This document shows positions 1-5,548 of a DNA stretch of 5,548 nucleotides, piece after piece (the first letter of the stretch is position 1; every line of letters begins with the position of its first letter). A program made the position numbers and the translations under genes. A model generated the notes under the pieces. It searched no databases. It was not told the origin of the DNA and worked only from the letters and a program-made list of their open reading frames with translations. Source of the DNA: a virus; IMG/VR virus record IMGVR_UViG_3300045988_001250, positions 1 to 5,548 of that record. The stretch is one strand, 5' to 3'.

Positions 1-55
1 CGCTGGCGGACTATCTGGGACTGCCTACCAAAGTTAAAGGCATCAGCGTAAGCGC
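1..55. repeat. Terminal redundancy (copy 1), identical to 5494..5548; signature of a circular contig rather than a biological repeat
   Basis: Read directly: cgctggcggactatctgggactgcctaccaaagttaaaggcatcagcgtaagcgc occurs at both window ends, 55/55 identical. Confidence 0.95.
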
Positions 56-1223
56 TCTGCCCGGTCGAGCATACGGCCTAATCTACAACGAGTGGTTTCG
101 AAACCAGAACGTCACGCAGCCGACGCTCGTAGAAGTGACGGATGCGACCACGACCGGCAAAAACGACGGCAGCACTACCAACGACAGCGCTATCACGTTG
201 GCAAAACCTCTCAAAGCAGCGAAAGTGTTTGACTACTACACCGGAGCTTTGCCGGAGCCTCAGAAAGGCGAGCCAATAACGATTCCGCTGGGAGACACCG
301 CAAAAGTCTACGCATATGAACAAAACGGAGCTAAGTTCGAAGGAAGTCAAGACCTAACAAACTTCCACATATACAACGAAGACAATAAAACAGAAGGACT
401 CACAGCGTACCCCGGAAATGTCGCCCTTGGAATGCTTACGTTAAAAACAGACCTCAGCAGCGTCACCTCAGCTACCATCAACCAGTTACGTCAGGCATTC
501 CAGATTCAGAAACTGCTCGAAAAAGATGCACGAGGCGGCACGAGATACCGCGAGGTACTGCGCGAACACTTCGGAGTTATCTCTCCTGACTCTCGTATGC
601 AGATTCCGGAATATCTGGGCGGCTACAGACTGCCTATCAACGTGTCTCAGGTTATCCAAACCTCTTCGACCGACAGCACGAGTCCGCTGGGCAACACAGC
701 GGCGCTAAGTGTTACCACGATGAACAAACCTATGTTTACCAAGTCCTTTACGGAACACGGATTTATCATGGGACTCGCAGTAGTACGAACCGACCAAACC
801 TATCAGCAGGGTATCGAGCGCATGTGGAGCCGCAAAGGCCGGTATGATTACTACTGGCCGGTACTGGCAAACATCGGCGAACAAGCCATTCTCAACAAAG
901 AAATCTATGCACAGGGCAACAAGGCAGATGAAGAAGCGTTCGGCTACCAAGAGGCATGGGCCGACTACAGGTACAAGCCCAGCAAAGTAACTGGGCTTTT
1001 CCGAAGCAACGCAGCACAGAGCCTCGATGCATGGCACTATGCACAAGATTACGACGCACTACCCACGCTGAGTACGGCATGGATGGAGCAGACCGACAGA
1101 GAAATGAAGAGAACACTGGCGGTGCAGAATCAGCCAGACTTCATCGCGGACTTCTACTTTATGAACAAAACAACCAGATGCATGCCGGTGTACAGCATTC
1201 CCGGCCTCATCGACCATCACTAA
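1..1223 (+). CDS. VP1: Major capsid protein VP1, C-terminal part (first complete codon at nt 3); joined product 5124..5493+1..1223 = 1593 nt, 530 aa
   Basis: The frame is open from the window edge (LADYLGLPTKVKGISVSALPGRAYGLIYNEWFRNQNV...) to TAA 1221-1223. It is in the same phase as 5124.. because 5493 is divisible by 3. The track's GTG-135 start is an artefact of the window cut. The size and the YNxIxNEWFRDQN-type block fit Microviridae F/VP1. Confidence 0.93.
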   Translation, partial: LADYLGLPTKVKGISVSALPGRAYGLIYNEWFRNQNVTQPTLVEVTDATTTGKNDGSTTNDSAITLAKPLKAAKVFDYYTGALPEPQKGEPITIPLGDTAKVYAYEQNGAKFEGSQDLTNFHIYNEDNKTEGLTAYPGNVALGMLTLKTDLSSVTSATINQLRQAFQIQKLLEKDARGGTRYREVLREHFGVISPDSRMQIPEYLGGYRLPINVSQVIQTSSTDSTSPLGNTAALSVTTMNKPMFTKSFTEHGFIMGLAVVRTDQTYQQGIERMWSRKGRYDYYWPVLANIGEQAILNKEIYAQGNKADEEAFGYQEAWADYRYKPSKVTGLFRSNAAQSLDAWHYAQDYDALPTLSTAWMEQTDREMKRTLAVQNQPDFIADFYFMNKTTRCMPVYSIPGLIDHH

Positions 1224-1234
1224 AGAAAGGAGAC

Positions 1235-1262
1235 AGCCGGGGACAAAACCCCGGCTATTTTT
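1235..1262 (+). terminator. Hairpin plus T-tract just after VP1 (intrinsic terminator/attenuator or mRNA-stabilising hairpin)
   Basis: AGCCGGGG (1235-1242) pairs with CCCCGGCT (1249-1256), giving a perfect 8-bp GC-rich stem. The loop is 6 nt (ACAAAA) and is followed by ATTTTT (1257-1262). Confidence 0.6.
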
Positions 1263-1266
1263 GAAA

Positions 1267-2121
1267 ATGGCAATACCAGCCTTTTTAGGAGCCTTATCAA
1301 CAGGCGCGAAAATACTGGGCGGAGTAAGCGGCCTCATAAACGCCGGAACAGGCATCTTCAACGCGCTCAAAGGCACATCAGGCAGCGGCAGCACCTCAGC
1401 TGACAGTTACAACCAAGCGCACGGCGAAGGCGGCTCTAGCATGACCAGCGAAAGCGGAGTAAACATGGACCAGACAAAAGAGCTAGCCAAATACTTTCTG
1501 GGGCAGAGCCAACAAGCGCAGGGCATGCAGAGCATGCAAAACAACAAGAACTCTCTCATGGCACTGGGATTAAACACTCTGGGAGCTATCCAGCAGGGCG
1601 TTTACAATCGTATCCAGCAAGACGCAGCAATGTCCTACAACTCCGCAGAGGCAGCAGCTAACAGAGCATGGCAGGAGCGTATGAGTAACACAAGCTATCA
1701 GAGGGCAATGGCCGACATGAAAAAAGCGGGGCTTAATCCTATACTGGCCTACGCACAAGGCGGCGCAAGCACTCCGACAGGCGCACACGGAACAATCGGG
1801 CAAAGCAGCATAAGCGCACCAAGCGTTGGAACGCAGGCAGCAAGTATGCCGACAATCTCCGGCACAACCGCAAACTACTCGAAAACCAAAGCGGAAAGTT
1901 GGAACTGGACAGACTCAAGCGGAGAAATGCACAGTAGCGGTTACAACAGCTATCAGACGGACTTTCCAGACCTAACCGGATGGCTCAACCAAAACAACAA
2001 CAGCGGCAAAAAAGCCGGAAGCAACACGGTGGACGCGCTAAGCGGAGCTGACCACAAAGCAAAAAGCGGCAAAGTGCCAAATCTTAATCCGATGAACAAA
2101 TATATTAACGGAGGTAAATAA
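1267..2121 (+). CDS. VP2: VP2 minor capsid / DNA pilot protein (phiX174 H analogue), 284 aa
   Basis: The ORF runs to TAA 2119-2121. It has a Gly/Ala-rich hydrophobic N-terminus and the conserved microvirus VP2 block AWQERMSNTSYQRAMADMKKAGLNPILAY. Its position directly after VP1 fits. ATG 1267 is preferred over the track's TTG 1261. Confidence 0.88.
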   Translation: MAIPAFLGALSTGAKILGGVSGLINAGTGIFNALKGTSGSGSTSADSYNQAHGEGGSSMTSESGVNMDQTKELAKYFLGQSQQAQGMQSMQNNKNSLMALGLNTLGAIQQGVYNRIQQDAAMSYNSAEAAANRAWQERMSNTSYQRAMADMKKAGLNPILAYAQGGASTPTGAHGTIGQSSISAPSVGTQAASMPTISGTTANYSKTKAESWNWTDSSGEMHSSGYNSYQTDFPDLTGWLNQNNNSGKKAGSNTVDALSGADHKAKSGKVPNLNPMNKYINGGK

Positions 2122-3144
2122 ATGAGCTGCGCAAGACCACTCATCAGAATATACAATCCAAATGACCACAACATAACAGGGTCAATCATGACTCTGGAAA
2201 CATACCGCGAAAGAGCACACAATCCAACAGCAACGTATGAGAGCCTCGCATACCGCACAGACGTGATGCTACTGCCATGTGGCAAATGTCTCGGGTGCAG
2301 ACTCAGACAGCGGCAAGACTGGGAGACAAGAATGTTGATGGAGTCAAAAACACTGACGCCAGTATGGTTTTTGACGCTAACATGGAATCAAGAGTATGTG
2401 CCAGGAATGGCAAGAGAAACAGGCGAAATCATAAGAGGTGCAGTGCATCAGTGGACGACCGGAGACGCACCGGAAGTGGTGCAAATTCTCCTACAAGAGG
2501 ACATGGTACGCTTTAACAAGAGGCTGAGGAAAAAACAAGAAACGTCCAATAAATGGGGCTTAGACCTGAGATATTTTTACTGTGGCGAATACGGCGAAAA
2601 CACAGGAAGACCGCATCATCACGGCATTTATTATGGTTTGGAGATACCAGACCTCAAGAAAAAAAGGGGTGATAATCCGTACTTCGAAAGCGAAGAGATA
2701 AACAAGATATGGGGCATGGGCAACGTCATCATCGCAGAAGCATCGCCGGAAACGATGGCTTATGTAGCAGGATATGTAACCAAAAAGACATACGGAAACG
2801 ACAGCAAAAGGTATAGGGAGTTAGGTTTAACACCGCCGTACTGTTGCATGTCAAGAAATCCGGGTCTAGGCTATGACTACTACACGAGCCATAAAGAGCA
2901 GATGTACGCAGATGATGGGCTATACTTTAACGGTAAAAAAAGGCCGATACCGAGGTACTTTGATAAAAAATACGAAGAAGAAAACCCGAAAAGCCTATGG
3001 AGCATAAAAGAAAAACGACATTCGAGCGCAATCAACGCCTTAAAACTCAAAATGGCCAATACAGGATTGACCATAGAGCAGGAAGCAAAAGTAGAGGAAG
3101 AGACAAAGAAACAGAGATTTAGAAAAGCCAGAGGGCTATTATAG
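2122..3144 (+). CDS. VP4: VP4 replication initiation protein (HUH rolling-circle endonuclease, phiX174 A analogue), 340 aa
   Basis: An SD GGAGGT lies at 2110-2115, and the ATG abuts the VP2 stop. A Cys cluster LPCGKCLGCRLRQRQDW is present. RCR motif 1 is FLTLTW. Motif 2 (HUH) is RPHHHGIYYG, with cat cat cac at 2614-2622. Motif 3 has two tyrosines, AYVAGYVTKK (tat at 2761 and 2773), the YxxxY arrangement of phiX174 gpA. Confidence 0.95.
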   Translation: MSCARPLIRIYNPNDHNITGSIMTLETYRERAHNPTATYESLAYRTDVMLLPCGKCLGCRLRQRQDWETRMLMESKTLTPVWFLTLTWNQEYVPGMARETGEIIRGAVHQWTTGDAPEVVQILLQEDMVRFNKRLRKKQETSNKWGLDLRYFYCGEYGENTGRPHHHGIYYGLEIPDLKKKRGDNPYFESEEINKIWGMGNVIIAEASPETMAYVAGYVTKKTYGNDSKRYRELGLTPPYCCMSRNPGLGYDYYTSHKEQMYADDGLYFNGKKRPIPRYFDKKYEEENPKSLWSIKEKRHSSAINALKLKMANTGLTIEQEAKVEEETKKQRFRKARGLL

Positions 3145-3148
3145 TGTC

Positions 3149-3197
3149 AGTGGGCCTAATCCTATCAAGAAGAGGATTAGGCCCACTATTTATTTTC
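3149..3197 (+). terminator. Strong rho-independent terminator after Rep (15-bp perfect stem, 9-nt loop, T-rich tail)
   Basis: AGTGGGCCTAATCCT (3149-3163) pairs with AGGATTAGGCCCACT (3173-3187) as exact reverse complements. The loop is ATCAAGAAG (3164-3172). The tail is ATTTATTTTC (3188-3197). The structure starts 5 nt after the Rep stop codon. Confidence 0.8.
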
Positions 3198-3202
3198 GCT
3201 TA

Positions 3203-3212
3203 TTATATATAA
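3203..3212. repeat. AT-only perfect palindrome TTATATATAA, followed by AACTTGTTG (3211-3219), a 9-mer that recurs at 3320-3328
   Basis: Read directly. The palindrome is self-complementary and the 9-mer AACTTGTTG occurs twice in the intergenic region. Confidence 0.5.
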
Positions 3213-3246
3213 CTTGTTGTAGCCGTAGTAGTAGGGGCTGTGGAAA

Positions 3247-3432
3247 AGTTGAAAACCATAAATTTGAAACATAACATCGTAAAAAATAAGCATATTTCAT
3301 TGTTGAAAGATTTGTTGAAAACTTGTTGAAATGTTGAAACACTTTACCAGACTAAAATCTATTGCGTATAATGATGTTGAAAAGTATGTTGAAAATGTTG
3401 AAAAGCATGAGTTTTCCACAAAGTGTTGAAAA
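3247..3432 (+). repeat. Iteron-like array: 8 perfect direct copies of TGTTGAAA plus 1 degenerate copy, all in the same orientation, in two clusters
   Basis: Perfect TGTTGAAA occurs at 3301-3308, 3313-3320, 3324-3331 and 3332-3339 (cluster 1), and at 3375-3382, 3387-3394, 3396-3403 and 3424-3431 (cluster 2). A degenerate copy aGTTGAAA lies at 3247-3254. Start-to-start spacings are 12, 11 and 8 nt, then 12, 9 and 28 nt. The array lies in non-coding DNA between the Rep terminator and the main promoter. Confidence 0.9.
3343..3372 (+). promoter_or_regulatory. Candidate secondary promoter embedded between the two repeat clusters
   Basis: The -35-like TTTACC at 3343-3348 matches TTGACA at 4/6. An 18-nt spacer precedes a perfect -10 TATAAT at 3367-3372. 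No SD-led ORF lies immediately downstream. Confidence 0.35.
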
Positions 3433-3443
3433 TTCGAATTAAA

Positions 3444-3514
3444 GGCAGTCCGACGAGCGAAACCGGAAAGCCACGTCATGCTCTTCACACGGCGCACCGC
3501 GCCTACCGCATGAC
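3444..3514 (+). other. GC-rich structured block (at least two hairpins) between the repeat array and the main promoter; candidate ssDNA/RNA structural element
   Basis: Hairpin 1 pairs GGC/GCC (3444-3446 with 3470-3472) and TCCG/CGGA (3449-3452 with 3464-3467). Hairpin 2 pairs GTCATGC (3475-3481) with GCATGAC (3508-3514). It encloses GGCGC-ACC-GCGCC (3491-3503). The block contrasts sharply in composition with the AT-rich 3188-3440. Confidence 0.4.
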
Positions 3515-3554
3515 ATTCAAGGCAAAATTCTTCTAACTTTTTTCAAAAAAACTC

Positions 3555-3583
3555 TTGACAAAATAGAAAAAGCATGGTATAAT
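3555..3583 (+). promoter_or_regulatory. Near-consensus sigma70/sigmaA promoter with extended -10 and an A/T-rich upstream tract
   Basis: TTGACA lies at 3555-3560, followed by a 17-nt spacer and TATAAT at 3578-3583. The -10 is preceded by TGg (3575-3577), an extended -10 TGn. T6/A7 tracts at 3538-3550 resemble an UP element. This is the only perfect -35/-10 pair I found, and it sits at the head of the gene array. Confidence 0.8.
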
Positions 3584-3608
3584 GCAAACAGAAAAAGAGG
3601 TAAGAACC

Positions 3609-3794
3609 ATGAAAGCAAAATCTTTAGAGCATCTGAACATGAAAGCAATCGGCGAGCTGTACGACAAAGGAATCTACGAAACCAAAAAATACAGATACAT
3701 AGTTGACCGGGGCGACGGCGAGATATACCGCATCGAAAAGGACCTCCTGGGAACAACGGAAGCACTCGACCCGGAAAACTGGATAAAGCAGTAA
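3609..3794 (+). CDS. Hypothetical small protein (61 aa), first gene after the promoter
   Basis: An SD AAGAGGT lies at 3595-3601, 8 nt before ATG 3609. The track's ATG 3582 lies inside the -10 box and so cannot be on the transcript. The protein is hydrophilic: MKAKSLEHLNMKAIGELYDKGIYETKKYRYIVDRGDGEIYRIEKDLLGTTEALDPENWIKQ. I recognise no family. Confidence 0.6.
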   Translation: MKAKSLEHLNMKAIGELYDKGIYETKKYRYIVDRGDGEIYRIEKDLLGTTEALDPENWIKQ

Positions 3795-3809
3795 AGAGAG
3801 GTGACAAAA

Positions 3810-4007
3810 ATGAAAAAACCTAGATTTACAAGAGAAGAGCTGAACTGTCTGGAGGCTGGACACGAAGTAGAAAAAGGAAAATATACCTACCGAATCCACG
3901 GAAAGTATGTCAACGACTCATGGCACTGGGTACTTCAGAGGGCCGAAGAAACTGATGAAGACTGGGAAGACTGCGAAGTAATAAAAGAGAACAAAAATGT
4001 ACGATAG
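3810..4007 (+). CDS. Hypothetical small protein (65 aa) with an acidic, Trp-containing C-terminal half
   Basis: An SD AGAGGTG lies at 3797-3803, 6-8 nt before ATG 3810 (the track used GTG 3801). The sequence is MKKPRFTREELNCLEAGHEVEKGKYTYRIHGKYVNDSWHWVLQRAEETDEDWEDCEVIKENKNVR. I recognise no family. Confidence 0.55.
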   Translation: MKKPRFTREELNCLEAGHEVEKGKYTYRIHGKYVNDSWHWVLQRAEETDEDWEDCEVIKENKNVR

Positions 4008-4203
4008 AGCATATTATGAACTGTATAAAGGATACAGAGGGCCGGAAACACCGAACGAATGTGAATATTTTATCCGAAAGCTTTACAGACAGCTCAAAAA
4101 AGCATATACTGTAGAGGAAGCGAAAGCCATCATAGAAGAAATATACAAATACAAAAACCAAAAGGCAAAAATGGAGGTGAAACAGTGGCAATCATCAGTG
4201 TGA
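3997..4203 (+). CDS. Hypothetical small protein (68 aa), Tyr/Lys/Glu-rich, probably helical
   Basis: ATG 3997 overlaps the previous ORF by 11 nt. The only SD candidate is weak (AAGAGA, 3984-3989). The sequence is MYDRAYYELYKGYRGPETPNECEYFIRKLYRQLKKAYTVEEAKAIIEEIYKYKNQKAKMEVKQWQSSV. I recognise no family. Confidence 0.5.
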   Translation: MYDRAYYELYKGYRGPETPNECEYFIRKLYRQLKKAYTVEEAKAIIEEIYKYKNQKAKMEVKQWQSSV

Positions 4204-4328
4204 AGAGTGTCGAGAAAGCCATCAAAATCATGATGGACATTCTCGAAAAGCTGGACGAAATTTATCACGCGCTGCACGACAAGGAGGATGACAGCAATGG
4301 CAAAACGCACGAAAATGACCAGCAGTAA
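4185..4328 (+). CDS. Possible very small ORF (47 aa from GTG 4185, or 32 aa from ATG 4230) bridging the ORFan cassette and the J-like gene
   Basis: It is not in the track because it is under 60 aa. GGAGGTG at 4173-4179 lies 5-7 nt before GTG 4185, and the frame is open to TAA 4326-4328. The peptide is ...KSVEKAIKIMMDILEKLDEIYHALHDKEDDSNGKTHENDQQ. It overlaps both neighbours and has no homology support. Confidence 0.25.
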   Translation: MAIISVKSVEKAIKIMMDILEKLDEIYHALHDKEDDSNGKTHENDQQ

Positions 4329-4416
4329 AGACAAAAAGGTCTTTACTCAGACGGCAAAAAAGACCAAGGCCGTCAACGTCAGCCCGAAGAACATGAGAGG
4401 AGGCACTAGACTCTAA
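4297..4416 (+). CDS. Small basic DNA-binding/packaging protein (gokushovirus ORF8-like, phiX174 J analogue), 39 aa
   Basis: It is not in the ORF track because it is under 60 aa. An SD AAGGAGG lies at 4281-4287, 9 nt before ATG 4297; the in-frame ATG 4288 abuts the SD. The sequence is MAKRTKMTSSKDKKVFTQTAKKTKAVNVSPKNMRGGTRL, which is Lys/Arg-rich. It ends in the MRGGxRL/F motif typical of Chlamydia-phage ORF8-type proteins. Its stop overlaps the next start (TAATG, 4414-4418). Confidence 0.7.
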   Translation: MAKRTKMTSSKDKKVFTQTAKKTKAVNVSPKNMRGGTRL

Positions 4417-4658
4417 TGTTTAAGAAATACTACGCAATCTATGACAAGGTCGCCAAGAACTACAGCGGCCTCATCGAATTTCAGAACGACGCCGTCGCAA
4501 GCCGGCTCTTCGAAAACCAGCAGAAGAACAAAGACAGCTTTATCAGCATCAAGCCGGAAGATTTTCAGCTACACTACATCTGCACCATGGAGGACGAGAC
4601 CGGCGAAATCGTCGATAACGTCAACACGTGCGTATGTGAGGGCAAACCCAATGAGTAA
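4416..4658 (+). CDS. VP5: VP5-like non-structural protein (gokushovirus ORF5 family, phiX174 C-like role proposed), 80 aa
   Basis: GGAGG lies at 4399-4403. MFKKYYAIYDKVAKNYSGLIEFQNDAVASRLFENQ...KPEDFQLHYICTMEDETGEI follows the ORF5-family pattern: hydrophobic-IYD-K...y..pf...n.a.A.R.F, then PED(Y/F).L..iG.fDe.tGei. Its position immediately upstream of VP3 is canonical. Confidence 0.75.
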   Translation: MFKKYYAIYDKVAKNYSGLIEFQNDAVASRLFENQQKNKDSFISIKPEDFQLHYICTMEDETGEIVDNVNTCVCEGKPNE

Positions 4659-5127
4659 GTTTCGGAGCGCATACAGCGAACAGGTAAGGCATACGAGCCT
4701 GACCGGCAACGGCCACGAGCCTGAGTATGAGTACAAGGTAACGGACGAAGGCCGGGAGCTGGTAAAAACCGGCGAAACAGACGTCTATGCACTCATCCAG
4801 AGCCGTCTGGATGAAACCAAAATCGAAAACATCATCAAGCGGGCAACATACGACCCGACTGCACTGGGCAGTCAGGACTGGCAGACCAGCGAAACGATGA
4901 CCGATATTTCGGACGCACCAACAAACTACCACGAGTGGTATGGGCGTATCAAAGACGCGGAAGCGGAGTTTGACAAGCTGCCCATCGAAGTCAAAAACAA
5001 GTGGGACAACGATGTAGAAAAATACATCATGGCCTACGGAACCCAAGAGTGGGCAGACAAAATGGGCATAGCAAAACAGAAGGCCGAAGCAGAAAAGCCG
5101 GCTGAAAAAAGTGAGGTGAAAGAATGA
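4651..5127 (+). CDS. VP3: VP3 internal scaffolding protein, 158 aa
   Basis: ATG 4651 overlaps the VP5-like stop by 8 nt (ATGAGTAA). GAGGG lies at 4638-4642. The N-terminus is MSKFRSAYSEQ..., and a C-terminal block reads EFDKLPIEVKNKWDNDVEKYI, typical of the gokushovirus scaffold (Chlamy_scaf-type). It ends in a Lys/Glu/Ala-rich tail. Its stop overlaps the VP1 ATG. The track's start at 4441 is an out-of-context upstream extension. Confidence 0.8.
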   Translation: MSKFRSAYSEQVRHTSLTGNGHEPEYEYKVTDEGRELVKTGETDVYALIQSRLDETKIENIIKRATYDPTALGSQDWQTSETMTDISDAPTNYHEWYGRIKDAEAEFDKLPIEVKNKWDNDVEKYIMAYGTQEWADKMGIAKQKAEAEKPAEKSEVKE

Positions 5128-5548
5128 ACCGCAACAGTGAATACAACTTTGCACAGAATCCGCAAGTCGGAGTGAGCCGCAGCCGATTCCAGCGCAACAG
5201 CGACAACAAAACGACCTTCAACACGGGCGACCTCATCCCAATCTATCTGGATGAGGTGTTACCGGGTGATACGCACCAAATCGACGTTGCCTGTGTCATG
5301 CGAATGGCGACACCCATATTCCCGGTAATGGACAACGCCTATTGCGACTTCTACTTTTTCTTCGTGCCGAACCGCTTGCTCTGGAAGCACTGGAAGGAGT
5401 TTATGGGTGAAAACAAGGAAACCGCATGGACACCTAAGACGGAGTACAGTGTGCCGCAAGTAACGGCACCGAAAGACGGATGGGAAGAAGGTACGCTGGC
5501 GGACTATCTGGGACTGCCTACCAAAGTTAAAGGCATCAGCGTAAGCGC
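5124..5548 (+). CDS. VP1: Major capsid protein VP1 (phiX174 F homologue), N-terminal part; runs off the window end and continues at position 56 (equivalently 1..1223)
   Basis: ATG at 5124 overlaps the VP3 stop (ATGA). An SD GAGGTG lies at 5113-5118. There is no stop through 5548. Translation is MNRNSEYNFAQNPQVGVSRSRFQRNSDNKTTFNTGDLIPIYLDEVLPGDTHQIDVACVMRMATPIFPVMDNAYCDFYFFFVPNRLLWKHWKEFMGEN. This carries the conserved gokushovirus VP1 N-terminal blocks (KTTFxxGxLIPI, EVLPGDT, ATPIFPxMDN, FFVPNRLxW). It is missing from the ORF track because it has no in-window stop. Confidence 0.93.
   Translation, partial: MNRNSEYNFAQNPQVGVSRSRFQRNSDNKTTFNTGDLIPIYLDEVLPGDTHQIDVACVMRMATPIFPVMDNAYCDFYFFFVPNRLLWKHWKEFMGENKETAWTPKTEYSVPQVTAPKDGWEEGTLADYLGLPTKVKGISVS
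5494..5548. repeat. Terminal redundancy (copy 2), identical to 1..55
   Basis: Same 55-mer as at 1..55. Confidence 0.95.

Follow-up and report, generated by a model that had tools for sequence, protein, structure and literature searches.

A putative oriC-like module built from DnaA boxes, DnaA-trios, and an AT-rich element in the non-coding region of a gokushovirus genome

Overall architecture of the locus

The window analyzed here, positions 1 to 5,548 of IMG/VR record IMGVR_UViG_3300045988_001250, is a complete circular gokushovirus genome of 5,548 nucleotides (nt) that shares 85–94% identity with GenBank gokushoviruses from human, dog, and pig feces. The genome encodes VP1 (a Phage_F capsid protein, the gene of which spans the genome ends), VP2 (1261–2121), and VP4 (2122–3144), an HUH Rep that matches REP_ORF2-G2P, followed by a 437-nt non-coding region (3145–3581), a group of small open reading frames (ORFs), and then VP5 and VP3. 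Profile matches among the window proteins comprise the Phage_F capsid, Rep, the Chlamy_scaf scaffold, and ORF5. The Microviridae are a textbook case of replication by a phage-encoded HUH Rep, and they are thought to be nearly free of non-coding DNA.

Within the non-coding region lies an oriC-like module of ~245 nt (3188–3432), oriC being the bacterial chromosomal replication origin. Read along the plus strand, the module is composed of an AT-rich element, TAG trios, the tetranucleotide GGGC, a pair of tandem DnaA boxes, the first of consensus type, and about nine further boxes, nearly all of which point in the same direction, for a total of ~11 boxes per genome. The initial annotation of this DNA described a repeat array, for which it suggested, among other roles, a part in replication. 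That suggestion fits the arrangement seen here, in which the array constitutes the distal, accessory part of the putative origin-like module.

The repeat unit and the distal arrays

As annotated, TGTTGAAA is present in eight exact copies, all on the plus strand, within 3301–3431 (starts at 3301, 3313, 3324, 3332, 3375, 3387, 3396, and 3424). By chance, a mean of 0.23 and a maximum of 2 copies are expected (200 dinucleotide-preserving shuffles). The spacings of 12, 11, and 8 nt and of 12, 9, and 28 nt are also as described, and the proposed division into two clusters of four holds for the first four copies; the second cluster is composed of three copies plus one. Copies with one mismatch are found upstream of the array, TGTGGAAA at 3239 and AGTTGAAA at 3247, and TGTGGAAA recurs in inverted orientation at 3413–3420.

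The 8-mer, taken in the annotation to be the whole unit, is a truncated form of a 9-mer, TGT[T/G]GAAAA, which is the reverse complement of TTTTC[A/C]ACA. On the opposite strand, the G form, TGTGGAAAA, reads TTTTCCACA, in accord with the relaxed DnaA-box consensus TTWTNCACA, and the T form reads TTTTCAACA, one position off that consensus. The consensus DnaA box itself, TTATCCACA, has TGTGGATAA as its exact reverse complement. The first distal array (3301–3340, plus strand) contains TGTTGAAAG, TGTTGAAAA, TGTTGAAAT, and TGTTGAAAC at spacings of 12, 11, and 8 nt, and the second (3375–3404, plus strand) contains three TGTTGAAAA boxes spaced 12 and 9 nt apart. These are followed by an inverted box of consensus type (3412–3420, minus strand), which reads TTTTCCACA on the plus strand and is opposite to all other boxes, and by a last TGTTGAAAA box (3424–3432, plus strand), an exact TGTTGAAA copy. 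Taken with the comparisons below, the TGTTGAAA repeats are very probably DnaA boxes belonging to a mimic of an oriC-like origin.

The spacer between the arrays contains the weak promoter-like element TTTACC-18-TATAAT (3343–3372, plus strand) around which the annotation had built its geometry. The element is present, and neither it nor this geometry is conserved: its -10 hexamer reads TATAAC in the closest relatives, MG945135 and KT264798, and the whole inter-cluster spacer is swapped in other module types.

The unwinding core

Upstream of the arrays is a core (3188–3255) that the annotation overlooked. It begins with an AT-rich stretch (3188–3213), a candidate DNA-unwinding element (DUE), which ends in a phage-specific invariant ATAAC(TTGTTG). 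The A+T content is 85% at 3187–3213 versus 52% for the whole window. Next is the trinucleotide run TTG TTG TAG CCG TAG TAG TAG (3214–3234, plus strand), in which (TAG)3 begins at 3226 and TAG matches the DnaA-trio consensus 3′-GAT-5′; relatives with (TAG)5 are found. A GGGC spacer, or "GC-rich region" (3235–3238), separates the trios from the trio-proximal box TGTGGAAAA (3239–3247, plus strand), a full TTWTNCACA match as TTTTCCACA with one mismatch to TTATCCACA. A second, weaker tandem box, AGTTGAAAA (3247–3255, plus strand), lies distal to the better box and overlaps it by 1 nt. This box has three mismatches and is part of the invariant GTGGAAAAGTTGA core, its invariance among aligned cores being partly by construction, as its bases are inside the search pattern used below. 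The identical arrangement of the two boxes is observed in host origins.

This set of parts corresponds to the basal unwinding system (BUS) of bacterial origins, which is composed of an AT-rich element, DnaA-trios, and DnaA boxes (PMC8287927, PMC6669920). As defined in a published survey, a BUS comprises a 9-bp box with no more than two mismatches to TTATCCACA, at least three consecutive trios (3′-NAN-5′) no more than 16 bp from the box in the strand order 5′-trios-box-3′, and an AT-rich region past the trios, with an optional tandem box of up to four mismatches no more than 3 bp away (PMC8287927). In the window, the box TTTTCCACA (3239–3247, minus strand) has one mismatch; TAG TAG TAG (3226–3234) is followed by GGGC and then the box, with the same polarity as in the 10 chromosomal origins described below; and the region past the trios (3187–3213) is 85% AT. 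The trio-to-box spacer averages 4 bp in published origins (PMC8287927). None of 3000 first-order Markov simulations of the window yielded the BUS combination.

Comparison with chromosomal origins

The core pattern TAGTAGTAG-N3-6-GTGGAAAAGTTGAWAA was used to scan 185,579 genomes, one per GTDB species. Ten chromosomal loci were found, all in metagenome-assembled genomes (MAGs), eight of them from Bacillota, mostly Clostridia; the core-bearing Clostridia are Ruminococcus flavefaciens, Oscillospiraceae, Butyrivibrio/Lachnospiraceae, and unclassified Clostridia. In three loci, Pfam matches show the core lying between dnaA and dnaN, its trios and AT-rich end facing dnaN, and recF follows dnaN in two of these. 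In four further loci, the start of dnaN or the end of dnaA is seen beside the core. This gene order is that of a Bacillus subtilis-type origin, and the AT-rich stretch of the phage module is placed as in the host origins, where the AT-rich part sits between the trios and dnaN. The 10 host loci, each of 8 kb, contain no VP1, no VP4, and no phage genes; given the lack of VP1 and VP4 in these loci, a prophage integrated at the host origin is rejected.

A stretch of 31–33 nt is identical in the phage and host cores, including GGGC and extra TAGs that lie outside the search pattern, and in one host an 84% match extends to 67 nt and takes in the AT-rich element, trios, and boxes. The GGGC spacer is identical in 7 of the 10 aligned chromosomal origins, and the TAG run is likewise present in Clostridia dnaA-dnaN origins. 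Outside this core of 31–67 nt, the similarity is at the level of motifs only, which excludes recent wholesale capture from a host. Because phage-host similarity past the core is of this kind, the module is best described as mimicry or an old capture of a host origin.

The distal repeats likewise have counterparts in three of the host origins. TGTTGAAA dominates among the repeats of these origins: the dnaA-dnaN spacers of loci L131, L135, and L137 hold 32, 16, and 10 copies, respectively, and the remainder of each 8-kb locus holds 4, 0, and 3. The box in origins of the Lachnospiraceae type is TGTTGATAA, and that in one Bacillota origin is the canonical TGTGGATAA. The origin that the module mimics is most likely that of Clostridia hosts of the Ruminococcus/Oscillospiraceae group, which is built from the same TGTTGAAAA variant. 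In L131, a MAG of R. flavefaciens, the dnaA-dnaN spacer is unusually long (1484 nt), and a homopolymer of ~40 nt (6740–6850), poly-A on the trio strand, takes the place of the mixed AT-rich element.

The DnaA proteins of these three TGTTGAAAA-rich hosts, read from the 3′ ends of dnaA (L131, 5070–5363; L135, 3835–4128; L137, 7041–7334), contain GGRDHSTIVY(A/S), and the E. coli and B. subtilis counterpart is GGRDHTTV(L/I)HA. In the three hosts, Tyr thus occupies the position of E. coli His439, and His is kept in the DnaA of three hosts with other box types. This His-to-Tyr substitution in the recognition helix may mark a lineage-specific change in how boxes are recognized; we treat it only as a lead, as the base contacts of the recognition-helix residues are presumed.

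Distribution and variation among gokushoviruses

The module is found in >100 gokushovirus genomes, the VP4 (Rep) proteins of which are 32–98% identical to that of the window. A scan of IMG/VR for three nearby TGTTGAAA copies returned at least 119 stretches. At least 71 loci with the module are gokushoviral by their VP1 or VP4 genes (a count that takes in the window and eight GenBank relatives; 63 via the array pattern), and the other array-pattern matches listed are mostly coding tandem repeats with a few other phages. In GenBank, 47 records contain the module, 46 of them microviruses, where it is unannotated or covered by hypothetical or neighboring gene features only. A blastn search of PLSDB plasmids with 3186–3440, set for distant matches, returned none.

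Across gokushoviruses, the module is kept as a whole and its flanks are not. The conserved layout starts with TATAATATATAAC-TTGTTGTAG-nnG-TAGTAGTAG, a spacer of 4–5 nt, and a box then GTTGAAAA, and ends with a spacer of ~50 nt, four boxes, a further spacer, and three or four boxes. At homologous positions, different phages have TGTTGAAAA, TGTGGAAAA, TGTGGATAA, TGTTGATAC, or TGTTGATAA. The assignment of TTTTCAACA as a DnaA box rests on this interchangeability with consensus boxes and on its dominance in dnaA-dnaN spacers. Among 100 unique phage modules, the trio strand carries 842 boxes (mean of 8.4 per module) and the other strand 25, such that an inverted box is carried by at most a quarter of modules. 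The spacings are 8, 9, 11, or 12 nt, and the fourth base of the 842 boxes is T in 83% and G in 17% and is never C or A. Conservation in close relatives (0.95 for boxes, 0.93 for spacers) is uninformative, the whole region being near-identical there.

The strand polarity of the module is also kept. TAG trios, spacer, and a TGT[T/G]GAAA box are present on the array strand in 60 of 62 array-selected contigs among the matches listed, and trios are on the opposite strand in none; the two contigs that depart from this are short (4.4 and 4.7 kb). Under a stricter BUS count (no more than two mismatches to TGTGGATAA), the number is 31 of 62, and many phages have TGTTGAAAT as the proximal box. A second sample, chosen without the array pattern, comprises 42 VP4 relatives at 83–99% identity. 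In all of these, the core lies 3′ of VP4, with the exact pattern in 39 and one-base variants in three, and four or more boxes are present in 40.

Natural variants also separate the core from the arrays. In KT264799 (L003, 3514–3600), L150, and L160, both distal arrays are gone, all eight repeats included, and the AT-rich element, trios, and two boxes are retained. The unwinding core thus appears to be the indispensable part of the module. In L150, this minimal core is joined straight to the GC-rich element described below.

Orientation relative to the genes varies: the module is flipped in 16 of 71 genomes among the matches listed, and in some genomes it is located between VP2 and VP4. This variable orientation fits a self-contained element that would act on double-stranded DNA. 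In L138, L167, and L084, the core (trios, boxes, and spacer) is tandemly duplicated inside the module. Many close relatives (L087, L146, L075, and L148, among others), but not the window, have a GC-rich insert of 165–190 nt between the VP4 hairpin described below and the AT-rich element; the insert contains G6/C6 hairpins and a tract of alternating (CG/CA)n, ACGCGCACGCGCGAAACGCGCACGCACGCACG.

Larger viral contigs also contain DnaA-box arrays together with TAG trios and a GC spacer: L111 (1780–1990), L181/L190/L201, L189, L194, L199, L205, and MT836079 (8509–8547). L111 is a siphovirus fragment with tail genes (Dit and Gp37-like) and TGTTGAAA-type boxes, and the other larger contigs use TGTGGATAA. 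Some of these contigs may be host origins mis-binned as viral.

Neighboring elements

The module is flanked by structured elements on both sides. A perfect hairpin of 15 bp (15/15 complementary) with loop TATCAAGAAG (3149–3187, plus strand) lies just 3′ of the VP4 stop and adjoins the AT-rich end. This hairpin, which is outside the module, appears in minimum free energy and centroid folds alike, and KT264800 has compensatory stem changes around the same loop core. Its orientation follows the genes and not the invertible module, and it may be a terminator or a Rep-related hairpin. A similar hairpin is positioned just 5′ of the VP4 start in L059 (2930–2965), and L006 has a hairpin locus as well (~1995–2030). 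Constant adjacency of the hairpin to the AT-rich end, which is observed in the window and L059, fails in KT264800.

Directly 3′ of the last box is a GC-rich element of ~76 nt (3441–3516, plus strand) with two predicted hairpins and the sequence AAAGGCAGTCCG...GTCATGC...GGCGCACCGCGCC...GCATGAC. It is near-invariant across gokushovirus clades with VP4 proteins 42–99% identical to that of the window and has a 91.9% match in an otherwise unrelated microvirus. Essentially no covariation is found in its hairpins. The element may be part of the same replication region and could be a single-strand origin or primosome site.

Within the module, at the junction of the AT-rich element and trios, ATAACTTGTTG (3209–3219) is invariant in phages and absent from host origins. 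It shares AACTTG (3211–3216) with the cleavage site of phiX174 gpA, which is CAACTTG/ATATTAATAAC. By this resemblance, ATAACTTGTTG is a speculative candidate for the VP4 nick site. A search for AACTTG as a common Rep nick site in Chp2, phiMH2K, and SpV4 gave no informative match. The conserved 30-nt gpA sequence of a phiX174-type origin is represented in the window only by AACTTG.

The main consensus promoter that the annotation placed downstream of the repeats is present at 3555–3583 (plus strand), where TTGACA-17-TATAAT with a TG extension, of the sigma-70/SigA type, serves the small ORFs. No other promoter in the genome is as strong, and it adjoins the module, which lies directly upstream, without being part of it. 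Its extended -10 is typical of Firmicutes SigA and fits the proposed Clostridia host. In Pfam and PHROGs searches, the small ORFs (3609–4416) matched no DNA-binding family and had a single PHROG match, of unknown function. An Rfam scan of the whole window (E ≤ 1) returned zero families.

Proposed function and alternative explanations

The module has an origin-like architecture and a core identical to that of chromosomal origins; it is conserved along with its strand polarity, is independent of gene orientation, and preferentially retains its core. These features are consistent with a module that serves DnaA-dependent opening of the replicative form for phage DNA synthesis, a reading to which we assign a probability of roughly 0.5–0.6. 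By analogy with B. subtilis, host DnaA-ATP would fill the boxes on the double-stranded replicative form, and DnaA would oligomerize from the trio-proximal box across the spacer onto the TAG trios of one strand. DnaA on the trios would then melt the AT-rich element, and the opened DNA would start or assist phage DNA synthesis. By default, the bubble would be used for loading of the host helicase and primosome (DnaD-DnaB-DnaI-DnaC), leading to theta-type or episomal replication or to priming. Alternatively, melting could expose single-stranded DNA to the HUH Rep (VP4) near ATAACTTGTTG. Titration of DnaA from the host origin would be an unavoidable side effect.

In its fullest form, which we offer more tentatively, the proposal is that the phages use host DnaA to open the replicative form via a complete DnaA-dependent chromosomal-type origin, either as an oriC-type minichromosome in a non-integrative carrier state or in licensing Rep nicking at ATAACTTGTTG, and that the motif names hosts of the Ruminococcus/Oscillospiraceae type, whose DnaA would recognize TTTTCAACA. 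Episomal replication would fit the pseudolysogenic carriage of another gokushovirus (PMC7062461).

Several points weigh against DnaA-dependent opening. The cultured gokushoviruses Chp2, phiMH2K, and SpV4 have no trios, no box cluster, and no module. Microviruses replicate by rolling circle with their own HUH Rep, we know of no microvirus that needs DnaA, and a replication role for the module is not demanded by known biology. The dominant box TTTTCAACA departs from the classical DnaA-box consensus at the conserved position C6. The genome scan was seeded with the phage core, which makes identity inside the search pattern partly a product of construction and biases the assignment of hosts to exact matches. 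The two tandem boxes share 1 nt, and it is the trio-proximal box that fits the consensus better, contrary to the tendency in the published survey, in which the upstream tandem box tends to be the better one (PMC8287927).

The best rival, which we consider unlikely, is that the arrays form a DnaA sponge, titrating host DnaA-ATP onto the multicopy replicative form to block or reprogram host initiation and free replisome parts, with unwinding being irrelevant. Any box cluster on a multicopy replicon must titrate DnaA, and the window has ~11 boxes, with a mean of 8.4 over 100 modules. Box clusters at datA and in B. subtilis titrate DnaA, and the inc regions of B. subtilis are named for incompatibility of this kind. 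In T5-like phages, a region that was judged not to be related to replication holds eight conserved DnaA boxes (10.1101/866236). The trios, GC spacer, and AT-rich element would, however, be superfluous for a sponge, yet they are the most conserved parts, are retained after loss of the arrays, and, in the case of the trios, keep to the array strand in nearly all of the array-selected contigs. Compared with a DnaA titration locus, the module does have a box cluster, yet trios and an AT-rich element accompany this cluster and outlast the arrays.

Two further explanations are both improbable. In the first, DnaA at the arrays would act as a transcriptional operator or sensor, regulating the promoter at 3343–3372 or at 3555–3583 and coupling early expression to the replication state of the host. 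DnaA boxes overlap the autoregulated dnaA promoter in Firmicutes, and the module does lie directly upstream of the strongest promoter of the genome. The last box, however, is ~120 nt upstream of the -35 of that promoter, the inner promoter-like element is unconserved, the module is inverted in some genomes and sits between VP2 and VP4 in others, and trios with an unwinding element would have no operator role.

In the second, to which we give equally little weight, the module would be a single-strand (complementary-strand) origin, in which inverted boxes fold on the packaged single-stranded DNA into a hairpin that presents a double-stranded DnaA box beside single-stranded trios, and DnaA nucleates a primosome as at the DnaA-dependent "A site" of the ABC primosome. 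A perfect 9-nt inverted pair is available (TGTGGAAAA at 3239–3247 and TTTTCCACA at 3412–3420), in 55 of 71 genomes among the matches listed the gene-sense strand carries the trios, and the region folds better than shuffles (z = -2.7). Against this, the inverted box is found only 25 times in 100 unique modules, the orientation of the module is flipped in the remaining genomes, and the long-range inverted pair is missing from the centroid fold.

The least likely explanation is an iteron or operator array for another protein: a small phage protein, Spo0A, or an OmpR-family response regulator of the kind that binds direct repeats of TGTT type spaced 11 nt apart. It would account for direct repeats at spacings of 11–12 nt, and TGTTGAA and TGTTGA are one mismatch from the 0A box TGTCGAA (phi29) and from WalR, PhoP, and ArcA half-sites, respectively. 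Against it, these boxes are shared by phages whose small ORFs differ or are missing and by the dnaA-dnaN spacers of bacteria, no small ORF has a match to a DNA-binding family, and trios and consensus DnaA boxes accompany the repeats. A Spo0A array (TGNCGAA core) is ruled out by the absence of C at position 4 in the 842 boxes, and OmpR-family half-sites were dropped in view of the consensus DnaA boxes at homologous positions and in dnaA-dnaN spacers.

The annotation's view of an iteron- or operator-like array is therefore borne out in that the array is a non-random, same-strand, protein-binding array, but these are not iterons of the plasmid type, and no plasmid-type initiator is encoded. An iteron plasmid origin is excluded by the unit of 8–9 bp, an HUH protein as the only Rep, and the lack of a PLSDB match. 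The annotation had left open a phage- or host-encoded binder; a host protein is plausible, and the small ORFs are unlikely sources, since the boxes occur in phages with unrelated small ORFs and in chromosome origins. Nor is the element a true bacterial oriC, being located between VP4 and the small ORFs of a 5548-nt gokushovirus genome.

Comparison with known systems

Full-text searches of the searchable literature on Microviridae or gokushoviruses with DnaA, DnaA boxes, or oriC, and on DnaA-trios in bacteriophages, found no relevant paper, in agreement with the initial annotation, which knew of no described iteron system in this family. A conserved copy of a host origin of ~250 nt with DnaA-trios is unexpected in the Microviridae and suggests dependence on, or manipulation of, host DnaA; more broadly, it suggests that the phages borrow the replication-start machinery of the host. 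If this is true, a large, globally distributed group of mammalian-gut gokushoviruses maintains an acquired DnaA-dependent chromosomal-type origin, which would be a possible mechanism for the long-term persistence or pseudolysogeny of gut microviruses. The modules in a siphovirus fragment and larger viral contigs suggest that the strategy may be wider than microviruses. The motif also provides a sequence-based host prediction for abundant uncultured gut phages, namely Clostridia with TGTTGAAAA-box origins, and a handle for isolation. The probable lineage-specific DnaA-box variant is paired with the His-to-Tyr substitution in DnaA, and ~100 natural variants of the minimal core (deletion, duplication, and inversion) constitute comparative data for the DnaA-trio model.

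Similar to the B. subtilis-type oriC, the phage module has the same order of parts and polarity, TAG trios, a 4-nt GC spacer, a box with one mismatch, and further upstream boxes (PMC6669920, PMC8287927). The main differences are that the phage module is carried by a 5.5-kb rolling-circle single-stranded DNA phage with no dnaA or dnaN nearby, that it has ATAACTTGTTG added at the junction of the trios and AT-rich element, that its tandem boxes overlap by 1 nt, and that its role as an origin is putative.

Iteron theta plasmids (pSC101, P1, F, RK2, and R6K) share with the module direct repeats, DnaA boxes, an AT-rich region, and a logic of cooperative binding, titration, and copy control. Their iterons, however, are 17–22 bp in length and are bound by a plasmid-encoded Rep of the RepA/Pi/TrfA type; the phage unit is 8–9 bp, and no such gene is present. 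The phiX174 origin has in common with the phage module a Rep of the HUH family and the 6-mer AACTTG found in ATAACTTGTTG. In sequence, nothing beyond this 6-mer is shared, and the phiX174 origin, located in gene A, works without DnaA.

Among viruses, the nearest precedent is the box set of the T5-like iss (injection-stop) region, a phage non-coding region with ~8 conserved DnaA boxes that is described as reminiscent of oriC and includes the same C-to-A variant, TTATCAACA (10.1101/866236). In contrast to the gokushovirus module, this region belongs to a large double-stranded DNA phage, its boxes are paired in inverted repeats, no trios or unwinding element are reported, and the role proposed for the boxes is membrane anchoring and injection stop, not replication (10.1101/866236).

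Within the subfamily, the closest conceptual precedent is the mimicry of dif by enterobacterial gokushoviruses, which likewise copy a host chromosomal cis-site to borrow machinery and for which episomal "pseudolysogenic" carriage has been reported (PMC7062461). The dif site is not an origin and is bound by XerC/XerD for integration; in the present case, no integrated copies are found beside the host origins. With the module described here, the copying of host cis-sites by gokushoviruses, represented so far by dif for XerCD, would be extended to the replication origin.

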